Notes under the pieces: generated by a model
What the model saw: the letters and a program-made list of their open reading frames with translations, nothing else
What the model was told of the DNA's origin: nothing
Database searches by the model: none
DNA from: a virus
Virus record (IMG/VR): IMGVR_UViG_3300027917_001949
Location: 1-64,000 of that record
Strand: one strand, 5' to 3'
DNA length: 64,000 bases
Program-made: the position numbers and the translations under genes
Shown here: in pieces, positions 55,588-63,768 of the stretch
Layout: each line of letters opens with the position of its first letter
Numbering within the stretch: position 1 is the first letter of the stretch

Positions 55588-55808
55588 TGAAAGTTATAGA
55601 TTATAAGTTAATATGTCGAAAGTGTGGGAAACAGATGGGTGCATTAAGCATGGCATATATCGGTGTACCACACAATACCGGTGTCAAAGCATGTACCTGT
55701 ATTGAGTGTCTGCCAAAATCTCTGGATGAAGCTGAAGCTAATGGTTATGATGAGAAGATAATCAAAGAGTTCAGAGAGTGGATTGCTGCGGGTAGGACAA
55801 ACGGTTAA
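55587..55808 (+). CDS. Small Cys-rich protein (stop lies within tRNA-Met)
   Basis: CRKCG...CIEC. Confidence 0.5.
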   Translation: MKVIDYKLICRKCGKQMGALSMAYIGVPHNTGVKACTCIECLPKSLDEAEANGYDEKIIKEFREWIAAGRTNG

Positions 55809-55859
55809 GTCGCAACCTTCATAAGGTTAGAGGATAGGGTTCAACTCCCTAACCCGCTA
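55787..55859 (+). tRNA. tRNA with CAT anticodon (Met; 1:72 mismatch, initiator-like)
   Basis: AACC-ttCATaa-GGTT; TAGGG-ttcaact-CCCTA. Confidence 0.8.
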
Positions 55860-61108: not shown

Positions 61109-61183
61109 GGGGACGTAGCTCAAAGGTTGAGCATCGGTCTGATATACCGAAGGTTGTAGGTTCAAGTCCTACCGTCCCTACCA
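61109..61183 (+). tRNA. tRNA-Ile(GAT)
   Basis: TCGGT-ctGATat-ACCGA; encoded CCA. Confidence 0.92.
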
Positions 61184-62678: not shown

Positions 62679-62780
62679 GCAGGGGATAGTTTAACGGTAA
62701 AATAGCTGTAAAGTTGAAAGAGTTGACTTTATTATCCTAGATAAGGAGTAGCTGTCGGTTCGAGTCCGACTTCCCTGCCA
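62679..62780 (+). ncRNA. tRNA-like RNA with branched insert replacing the anticodon arm
   Basis: Normal acceptor, D and T arms; 50-nt two-hairpin interior. Confidence 0.6.
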
Positions 62781-62783
62781 CAT

Positions 62784-63430: not shown

Positions 63431-63673
63431 ATGCCGAACACTCGCTACTTGAAACTAATTTGTGTATCCTGTCACAAGCGTAAGAAGGATTGTACATGTC
63501 ACTCTCATTACGCAAAGTATCATGGTGCAAAATATGGGTATACGTGGTGTGTTGATGTTGGTGTTGGCGCATATTGTGATGAATGCGTAAATAGGTTTTA
63601 TTGTTTTACTCATCGAGGATGGTTTGGGACAGATTTACCAGACTATAAATCGTATTACGGAGTATTGAATTAG
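63431..63673 (+). CDS. Small protein with CxxCxxRFxCxT motif
   Basis: CDECVNRFYCFT. Confidence 0.6.
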   Translation: MPNTRYLKLICVSCHKRKKDCTCHSHYAKYHGAKYGYTWCVDVGVGAYCDECVNRFYCFTHRGWFGTDLPDYKSYYGVLN

Positions 63674-63768
63674 GGAGCGTAGCACAATTTGGCAGTGCAG
63701 CAGTCTTATAAGCTGTTTAGGGTCTGATACACCCGAGGTTACAGGTTCGAGTCCTGTCGCTCCTACCA
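63673..63768 (+). tRNA. tRNA-Ile with two tandem anticodon arms (TAT and GAT)
   Basis: GCAGT-ctTATaa-GCTGT, tt, aGGGT-ctGATac-ACCCg; normal acceptor, D, T arms and CCA. Confidence 0.8.

Follow-up and report, generated by a model that had tools for sequence, protein, structure and literature searches.

We describe a transfer RNA (tRNA) gene with two anticodon-like arms, located on the plus strand at positions 63673-63768 of a 64,000-nt stretch of phage DNA (hereafter the window), which comprises the first 64 kb of the 152,753-bp IMG/VR record IMGVR_UViG_3300027917_001949 (CheckV completeness 99%). The encoded RNA folds into five helices. Between a decoding anticodon arm carrying UAU (arm 1) and the T arm lies a further arm of anticodon-arm size (arm 2), whose 7-nt loop is centred on GAU, the anticodon of the major tRNA-Ile. 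Very probably, this is a working AUA-decoding tRNA whose second arm is kept by selection. Hundreds of phages and bacteria share this layout, which characterises a large and essentially undescribed five-helix family in phages, bacterial tRNA arrays and some bacterial chromosomes. Our fuller proposal, in which arm 1 decodes AUA, the host isoleucyl-tRNA synthetase (IleRS) charges the tRNA with isoleucine and the GAU of arm 2 acts as the identity handle, is tentative, and we place it a little short of an even chance.

ARAGORN called the gene as a 96-nt tRNA-Ile(tat), and the Rfam tRNA model RF00005 scored it at 57.7 bits (gathering threshold 29), with arm 2 accommodated as an insertion in the variable region. 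The five-helix structure was both the minimum-free-energy fold and the centroid; the fold energy by itself was not unusual (z = -1.27). A sequence-only reading had already placed a two-arm tRNA here, and the sequence agrees with all of its coordinates base for base. The parts of the gene are as follows.

63673-63768 (+): whole five-helix tRNA, 96 nt, anticodon UAU, discriminator A73, encoded CCA (ARAGORN, Rfam RF00005, five-helix minimum-free-energy fold)
63673-63679 (+): 5′ strand of the acceptor stem, GGGAGCG, 7 bp with 63758-63764, first pair G1.U72 (sequence and fold)
63682-63698 (+): D arm, GCAC / 9-nt loop / GUGC, with A14 and A15 at 63686-63687 (fold and Rfam model)
63699 (+): A26 (sequence)
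63700-63716 (+): arm 1, decoding anticodon arm GCAGU-CUUAUAA-GCUGU, 5-bp stem, U33 and A37 (sequence and fold)
63707-63709 (+): anticodon UAU, reads AUA (ARAGORN)
63717-63718 (+): UU linker between arm 1 and arm 2, family range 2-6 nt (sequence)
63719-63735 (+): arm 2, anticodon-like, AGGGU-CUGAUAC-ACCCG (sequence, fold and family covariation)
63720-63723 with 63731-63734 (+): arm 2 stem GGGU/ACCC, four Watson-Crick pairs, outer A.G unpaired (fold)
63724-63730 (+): arm 2 loop CUGAUAC, 7 nt (sequence and fold)
63726-63728 (+): GAU triplet centred in the arm 2 loop, as in the major tRNA-Ile anticodon (sequence and homologues)
63736-63740 (+): AGGUU 5-nt linker, like a class-I variable loop, with a G46-like third base and U48 opposite A15 (family comparison)
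63741-63757 (+): T arm, ACAGG / UUCGAGU / CCUGU (fold and Rfam model)
63758-63768 (+): 3′ strand of the acceptor stem (63758-63764), discriminator A73 (63765) and CCA (63766-63768) (sequence)

The AGGUU that follows arm 2 is identical to the variable loop of an ordinary isoleucine tRNA encoded by the same phage, given here for comparison.

61109-61183 (+): ordinary tRNA-Ile(GAU), loop CUGAUAU, variable loop AGGUU (ARAGORN and Rfam)

That arm 2 goes beyond chance follows from its homologues, not from the single window sequence. An arm-blind scan of the IMG/VR viral contigs, using only a UAU loop, a long gap and a T loop, returned at least 115 loci, which were parsed by ARAGORN and cleared of duplicates. 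Among the matches listed there were 41 distinct long UAU tRNAs, and 32 of the 41 carried GAU centred in a 7-nt loop on a 4-5 bp stem; the double-arm tRNAs that the sequence-only reading proposed to look for in viral genomes thus exist. The extra-arm loops seen among these matches were CAGAUUA, UAGAUAA, CAGAUGG, UAGAUUG, CUGAUUU, CCGAUUA, CGGAUUA, CAGAUCA and CAGAUAA. The nearest kin listed, L108 and L005, retain GAU in a CUGAUUU loop and show compensatory changes relative to the window tRNA in arm 1, arm 2 and the T stem. In a converse scan of viral contigs, in which CAGATTA and a T loop were required and the anticodon was unconstrained, stem-closed CAGAUUA was found in 92 distinct cases among the matches listed, all of which (92/92) had a YUUAUR loop 8-32 nt upstream. 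The anticodon-arm shape of arm 2, its tie to UAU tRNAs in viral contigs and the presence of A73 in the tRNA body all hold up accordingly. We defined the family by a YUUAUAN decoding loop, a 2-6-nt linker, a 4-5-bp stem with a 7-nt GAU-centred loop, a 5-6-nt 3′ linker ending in Y48 and A73, and the tRNA at 63673-63768 has all of these features.

Conservation was quantified on 58 distinct 17-nt arms aligned on their GAU. The invariance of GAU in this alignment is by construction, and the unbiased figure is the 32/41 of the arm-blind scan. The inner four pairs were paired in ~97% of cells, using many pair types. The arm 2 stem reached a covariation score of 0.693 versus 0.170 for shuffles, with 0/500 shuffles attaining the observed value, and slid pairing partners scored at most 0.20. 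In the loop only G-A-U was fixed and the flanking positions varied (Y, N, N, R-rich), the 32-like position being C or U and the 38-like position mostly A across the family. Free neighbours around a fixed triplet are the pattern expected for anticodon read-out. When the window tRNA was aligned with 39 other members (40 diverse full-length sequences in total), RNAalifold recovered the same five helices unprompted, with double (compensatory) changes in 21 of 24 pairs. These comparisons support arm 2 as a selected feature as opposed to chance, artefact or a freely drifting variable arm, in line with the earlier argument that such an arrangement would not arise by chance.

The same data bear on two further ideas, that a duplication or insertion left arm 2 behind as a neutral relic, or that the locus is an assembly chimera. 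Nothing but the unusual look of the gene speaks for either. More than 100 distinct genes share the layout, drawn from metagenomes of independent origin, from phages in culture and from bacterial genomes, and the stem is maintained by compensatory changes around a fixed GAU, so that both ideas are already contradicted and exceedingly improbable. The two outcomes that the sequence-only reading had named as fatal to it, chimeric assembly and a second arm varying freely in homologues, were thus not what we found.

An extra helix between the anticodon and T arms is otherwise the hallmark of class II tRNAs (Ser, Leu, Tyr, Sec), where the ribosome tolerates it and, in the canonical cases, the synthetase relies on it as an identity element. 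We therefore compared arm 2 with the variable arms of tRNA-Ser (105), tRNA-Leu (97) and tRNA-Tyr (32) from the loci of the five-helix family.

Loop length: 3-4 nt in Ser/Leu/Tyr arms; 7 nt in 101/117 members of the five-helix family
Unpaired bases before the T stem: 1-3 in Ser/Leu/Tyr arms; 5-6 in the five-helix family
GAU in the loop: 4/~250 Ser/Leu/Tyr arms; fixed within the GAU class of the five-helix family (32/41 unbiased)

Unlike the canonical class II arm, which has a 3-5-nt loop, a 1-3-nt 3′ linker and no conserved triplet, arm 2 is anticodon-arm-sized, has a 5-6-nt linker and carries a fixed GAU; the window tRNA itself, with its 7-nt loop and 5-nt linker, falls outside the class. The third base of the 3′ linker was G in 38/56 members (as G46) and the last base Y in 54/56. 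Together with position 15 this last base forms a covarying Levitt pair (53 members with A15-U48, 11 with G15-C48). Judged from the alignment, the five to six bases 3′ of arm 2 behave like class-I positions 44-48.

The discriminator base further separates the family from tRNA-Ser. A73 was present in 104/105 family members, as in 47/48 co-resident tRNA-Ile(GAU) and 187/187 tRNA-Leu, and G73 was found in 81/98 tRNA-Ser of the same loci. A73 of the window tRNA (63765) is the bacterial Ile-type discriminator. The commonest first acceptor pair in the family was G.U (68/105), as in the window tRNA.

Could the gene nevertheless specify a tRNA of class-II type, aminoacylated by LeuRS, SerRS or TyrRS, with recoding or mistranslation of AUA as the result? 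In bacteria, tRNA-Leu usually belongs to class II. The four tRNA-Leu genes of the phage, all of which lie beyond the window (full-record positions 64698-64774, 67181-67256, 68520-68594 and 69236-69312), are 75-77 nt in length with A73 and no long variable arm, so a long arm is no leucine mark here. A73 is shared with tRNA-Leu, as the counts above show, and there are precedents. The nematode nev-tRNA-Ile(UAU) also combines a UAU anticodon with a long extra arm and is charged with leucine, and allo-tRNAs have been proposed to accept serine (PMC3333845, PMC5389517). However, nev-tRNA-Ile(UAU) is eukaryotic, derived from tRNA-Leu and charged via a Leu-type arm, with no anticodon-like loop reported (PMC3333845, PMC4300185). 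The geometry of arm 2 is unlike that of the Ser, Leu and Tyr arms of the same loci, the Ser-typical G73 is absent, and the fixed GAU would be left unexplained. In addition, six allo-tRNA-UAU variants changed to CUA, i.e. amber suppressors, inserted neither Ser nor Ala in E. coli (PMC5389517). We consider charging by one of these three synthetases improbable.

These allo-tRNAs are the closest published precedent. Mukai et al. 2017 (PMC5389517) reported abundant acidobacterial allo-tRNA-UAU genes with "five-stem-junction structures", assumed a serine identity, left the function open and suggested a non-translational role for most of them. The main text of that paper makes no mention of a GAU loop or of IleRS. 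Many Acidobacteriota UAU tRNAs with a GAU arm have, like allo-tRNA, a long acceptor stem and a tetraloop D arm, and are probably the same as, or overlap with, the genes of Mukai et al. If those genes are isoleucine acceptors, their failure to insert Ser or Ala is expected. In allo-tRNA the acceptor/T branch is 8/4 or 9/3, the long D stem is capped by a tetraloop and the discriminator is G73 or U73. The window tRNA differs on each count, its branch being 7/5, its D stem 4 bp with a loop of 9 nt and its discriminator A73. We found no description in the literature of a GAU-bearing second arm on tRNA-Ile(UAU), and phage papers mention tRNA-Ile(UAU) genes without comment on their structure. The sequence-only reading had stated that no equivalent was described; this stands for the GAU arm, and should be put less strongly for the five-stem architecture, for which allo-tRNA-UAU is a precedent.

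A non-translational role, in which mobile elements would carry the RNA, shaped like a tRNA, for regulation, for a toxin-antitoxin-linked function or as an integration site, would fit the pseudogene-like copies, transposon and toxin-antitoxin links and lack of suppression activity of allo-tRNA-UAU (PMC5389517), as well as the many bacterial copies located in mobile-looking tRNA arrays. We nonetheless regard such a role as quite improbable for the gene described here. The failed suppression assay could score only Ser or Ala (PMC5389517), and the gene occurs inside near-complete tRNA sets of phages and arrays, where an AUA reader is expected. U33, A37, A73, CCA, the T loop and the Levitt pair are all kept, and the phage makes heavy use of AUA.

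This use was apparent when codon usage was examined, as the sequence-only reading had advised. ATA accounted for 36.6% of the isoleucine codons of the phage (24 per 1000 codons), making it about as common as ATG. Neither TilS nor IleRS was found to be encoded in the 99%-complete phage record, and in combination with its ATA usage a phage-borne AUA reader makes sense. The phage has two CAU tRNAs, at window positions 55787-55859 and full-record positions 66082-66157. The latter has an A1xC72 mismatch and looks like an initiator, and neither could be assigned as a clear lysidine-type tRNA-Ile2(CAU). A role in AUA decoding is consequently well grounded and the most likely one; isoleucine charging, recognition of arm 2 by IleRS and an exchange of arms are the parts that we infer.

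The identity elements for isoleucine in the anticodon loop are G34 or lysidine-34, A35, U36, N6-threonylcarbamoyladenosine at position 37 (t6A37) and A38 (PMC9976931). The decoding loop CUUAUAA offers the U36-A37 context for t6A37, plus A38, whilst position 34 is U in place of G or lysidine, and G-A-U is present in arm 2 only. The YUUAUAN form of the decoding loop, with Y32, U33 and A37, was found in 114/117 members. In comparison, the loop of arm 2 is mostly CAGAUUA, with A at the 33-like and U at the 37-like position, and most members lack U33 or A37 in arm 2, so this loop is not a decoding loop. The window loop CUGAUAC is unusual within the family in keeping both U33 and A37. The sequence-only reading had taken 7-nt CU-NNN-A loops on both arms as the rule, which does not extend to the family. 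Several class-I phage tRNA-Ile(GAU) genes also lack U33 and/or A37 (CCGAUUA, CUGAUUA, CCGAUAA) and so resemble the five-helix extra-arm loop; these are L017 8339-8414, L023 8170-8245, L043 11987-12061, L114 1374-1447, L104 951-1026 and L209 9161-9234.

Loop composition and linker length also bear on the idea, raised in the sequence-only reading, that a 96-nt precursor is cut or spliced to one or both 77-nt forms. In-silico removal of either 19-nt unit did leave a 77-nt cloverleaf, as that reading had noted, and ARAGORN called the products Ile(gat) or Ile(tat). However, removing arm 1 would leave most members with a loop lacking U33 or A37, and with linkers of anywhere between 2 and 6 nt the boundaries for exact excision are not conserved. 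No bacterial enzyme is known that could cut out a hairpin here and rejoin the RNA, and the sequences give no hint of one. Alternative processing is, in our view, very improbable.

We propose instead that the intact molecule is used. A UAU anticodon would free the tRNA from dependence on TilS but create a charging problem, given that UAU is not charged efficiently by E. coli IleRS, and that the Mycoplasma mobile enzyme needed a change, an Arg in the Zn-binding domain (Arg865), to charge it (PMC3575796). Arm 1, with UAU, U33 and A37, would decode AUA, and the host IleRS would charge the tRNA with isoleucine. Arm 2, kept by selection, would present G-A-U, the triplet read by bacterial IleRS on the major tRNA-Ile, and would thereby give IleRS a built-in identity handle on a tRNA with a poorly accepted U34. 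This handle is the best fit because the arm is anticodon-sized, occurs only on UAU tRNAs in the viral sample and has only G-A-U fixed.

How arm 2 might reach the synthetase is suggested by the junctions. A single nucleotide, position 26, joins arm 1 to the D stem in the canonical manner; arm 2 connects just as canonically on the other side, to the variable loop and T stem, through a class-I-like 44-48 loop of 5 nt. As each arm has one canonical junction, either could be stacked beneath the D stem. In complexes with class Ia synthetases the variable region of the tRNA faces solvent, and for this reason we judge an exchange of stacking partners the likeliest mechanism, with arm 2 placed under the D stem for the synthetase and arm 1 for the ribosome. 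The tRNA would then be read twice on two hairpins, with GAU as the charging anticodon for IleRS and UAU as the decoding anticodon for the ribosome, the arms alternating under the D stem; we hold this picture tentatively, at appreciably below an even chance.

The origin of the arms may be consistent with such an arrangement of junctions. A blastn comparison of the anticodon arm and 3′ half of a Felix-O1-type tRNA-Ile(GAU) with arm 2 and the 3′ half of family member L230 gave 83% identity over 48 nt (E = 4e-5), which suggests descent of arm 2 from an anticodon arm with GAU, arm 1 being the insertion. Arm 2 was also more similar than arm 1 to the anticodon stem of co-resident tRNA-Ile(GAU) (3.6 versus 2.9 of 10 positions; 23 to 12 comparisons). 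This stem comparison is suggestive only, and weakly supports arm 2 as the ancestral arm.

Several observations weigh against an IleRS handle. One is geometric and awkward, as a loop on the variable arm would lie far from the anticodon-binding domain of IleRS unless the arms swap. Arm 2 is also an imperfect mimic, most members having A33 and U37 (CAGAUUA), and t6A37 is a strong determinant for bacterial-type IleRS (PMC9976931). Approximately 20% of the long UAU tRNAs among the matches listed carry another arm, with a CUWACAA or GAC loop. In matched viral scans, 43 contigs had class-I-length UAU matches (mostly ordinary-looking) versus 24 with extended ones (~13 GAU-type), so the extra arm is common, not obligatory. 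TilS was present in all five carrier bacteria examined; replacement of the lysidine pathway in bacteria was rejected as an explanation on this ground, and the bacterial gene would be an addition to that pathway. Finally, in vivo a mutant tRNA with UAU can be charged by the IleRS of Bacillus subtilis, and a handle would thus not be needed in every host.

It is possible, though on balance rather unlikely, that AUA is read as isoleucine and that the GAU of arm 2 is conserved for another partner or purpose. Arm 2 might serve an enzyme that modifies U34 or A37, limit misreading of AUG on the ribosome, help the five-way junction to fold or stay stable, or let the tRNA escape, or titrate, a host anticodon nuclease. 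Conservation and covariation, as signatures in sequence, point to selection but leave the partner unnamed, and a loop without U33 and A37 is no faithful copy of the IleRS substrate loop. A fidelity problem does exist, as on E. coli ribosomes the tRNA-Ile(UAU) of M. mobile does not discriminate between AUA and AUG (PMC3575796), and the class-I phage tRNA-Ile(GAU) genes with C33 or U37 hint at a phage-specific pressure on isoleucine anticodon loops. On the other hand, no other tRNA partner is known to read G-A-U specifically, and the exclusive pairing with UAU, together with a fixed 34-36-like triplet among free neighbours, fits an anticodon reader best.

The proposed handle may be set beside two known ways of reading AUA as isoleucine. 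The TilS-independent tRNA-Ile(UAU) of M. mobile (Taniguchi et al. 2013, PMC3575796) is likewise an unmodified-type UAU tRNA that reads AUA without lysidine, and faces the same problem as the phage tRNA, namely that standard IleRS accepts U34 poorly. Tolerance of UAU in that type resides in the enzyme (Arg865 or a eukaryote-type IleRS) and the tRNA is an ordinary class-I cloverleaf; unlike it, the phage tRNA carries the GAU arm itself and must use an unchanged host enzyme. TilS-independent tRNA-Ile(UAU) has been reported in Bifidobacterium and Neorickettsia too. The bacterial tRNA-Ile2(CAU) also reads AUA as isoleucine and also owes its IleRS identity to something added, which in that case is the TilS modification of C34 to lysidine and in the phage tRNA would be an encoded RNA arm.

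Reading AUA as isoleucine without misreading AUG has several known solutions, which differ by domain of life: lysidine, agmatidine, pseudouridine/inosine and a changed IleRS. If our proposal is true, a widespread tRNA that solves AUA charging by means of a second, anticodon-like arm would represent a new principle of tRNA identity, in which the identity element is supplied in cis as a mimic of the anticodon arm of another isoacceptor. Phages and mobile tRNA arrays would have spread an alternative to lysidine that is encoded in the tRNA and requires no enzyme, and this would explain both the abundant and puzzling allo-tRNA-UAU genes and the TilS-independent translation of AUA-rich phages in hosts where an AUA reader is scarce. 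The arrangement would also provide a natural template for uncoupling tRNA identity from decoding and, where a synthetase reads the anticodon, would offer synthetic biology a route to codon reassignment. Should IleRS turn out not to be involved, so strictly conserved a GAU loop would still imply some other partner.

We further examined the occurrence of the family in cultured phages and prokaryotes. Sinorhizobium phage Phosso carries a member annotated as tRNA-Ile(tat) of 93 nt. Lactobacillus phages LpeD and Lpa804 and Synechococcus phage S-SRM01 carry members that annotation missed (3/4 of the cultured examples), of which annotation pipelines should take note. A prokaryote scan, using one genome per species and requiring the UAU loop, returned at least 120 loci. 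Carriers among the matches listed included Acidobacteriota (Terriglobia, Pyrinomonadaceae, Bryobacteraceae), Hyphomicrobiales, Sphingopyxis and Rhodobacteraceae (Ruegeria, Sulfitobacter, Roseovarius), amongst others. Many bacterial copies were located inside dense arrays, with 20-38 tRNA genes packed into a few kilobases, and others were solitary; a Pfam search of the genes beside a solitary Ruegeria copy was uninformative. The order within arrays was recurrent (Asn-Met-Ile(UAU)-Val-Ile(GAU)-Lys-Lys-Arg...) and resembled the phage tRNA cluster. Array loci were found among L240-L359 (e.g. L241 1172-6778, L259 3338-6860 and L356), from Acidobacteriota and other genomes or metagenome-assembled genomes. 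Short tRNA-Leu genes like those of the phage were also seen in bacterial arrays carrying the five-helix tRNA (e.g. L241, L245, L259). The tRNA body differed by subgroup: in one the D arm is canonical, in another a short D loop goes with an anticodon stem of 7 bp, and a third is allo-like, its acceptor stem long and its D arm ending in a tetraloop. The extra loop was the same across all of them.

The phage itself is tailed and has a G+C content of 41.5%; a DNA polymerase, a DnaB-type helicase and a tape-measure protein are among its products. Its record contains 32-35 tRNA or tRNA-like genes between 55.4 and 72.2 kb. Within this cluster the five-helix gene lies between a small open reading frame (ORF) at 63431-63673 and a tRNA-Arg(ACG). 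This ORF (+ strand) encodes an 80-aa Cys-rich product and its stop codon overlaps the first base of the tRNA; many ORFs of the cluster abut tRNA ends. When a neighbouring 112-aa protein was used as a query, a single weak related locus was found.

Other searches added little to the family. The exact two-loop pattern (CTTATAA, gap, CTGATA, gap, T loop) gave two chance matches in a coding region of viral contigs, and BLAST of the window tRNA with its flanks against 50,697 phage records returned nothing useful. A scan with the D arm only was non-specific, matching mostly tRNA-Asn and tRNA-Thr, and contributed one additional member, L616. Locus G+C content did not separate five-helix from class-I UAU tRNAs (0.41 versus 0.40, p = 0.14).

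A second tRNA-like RNA was observed at window positions 62679-62781 (+), between two tRNA-Lys genes (Rfam tRNA 37.7 bits). Its acceptor, D and T arms are normal and two hairpins stand in place of the anticodon arm, namely an 8-bp stem with a 5-nt loop and UCC-UAGAUAA-GGA, whose loop is of the GAU type of the five-helix family. After the second hairpin comes a linker of 5 nt whose final U faces A15, and the discriminator is apparently C. This reading is uncertain, as an alternative pairing (UUAUC/GAUAA) would bury the GAU.

Heterogeneity was also observed in the extra arm of other long tRNAs. The arm CC(C)-CUWACAA-GG(N), whose 7-nt loop resembles a valine anticodon loop (UAC or AAC), was found at L010, L055, L077, L088, L113, L404, L491 and L513, and also at L428, L458 and L118. 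We considered it as a UAU-specific mimic of the valine anticodon and rejected this, because the same arm occurs on tRNA-Asn(GUU) and tRNA-Ser(GCU) and is thus generic. In L020 3809-3899 (-), which is otherwise close to L103 (CAGAUUA), the extra loop is CGGACGG, in which GAC, a valine anticodon, replaces GAU. Separate from all of these are aberrant phage AUA tRNAs that combine a UAU loop with a strongly reduced D region and another hairpin (e.g. AACC-GUAAUU-GGUU), found at L006, L009, L026, L047, L057, L094, L111 and L112, and also at L027, L040, L042, L064 and L090.

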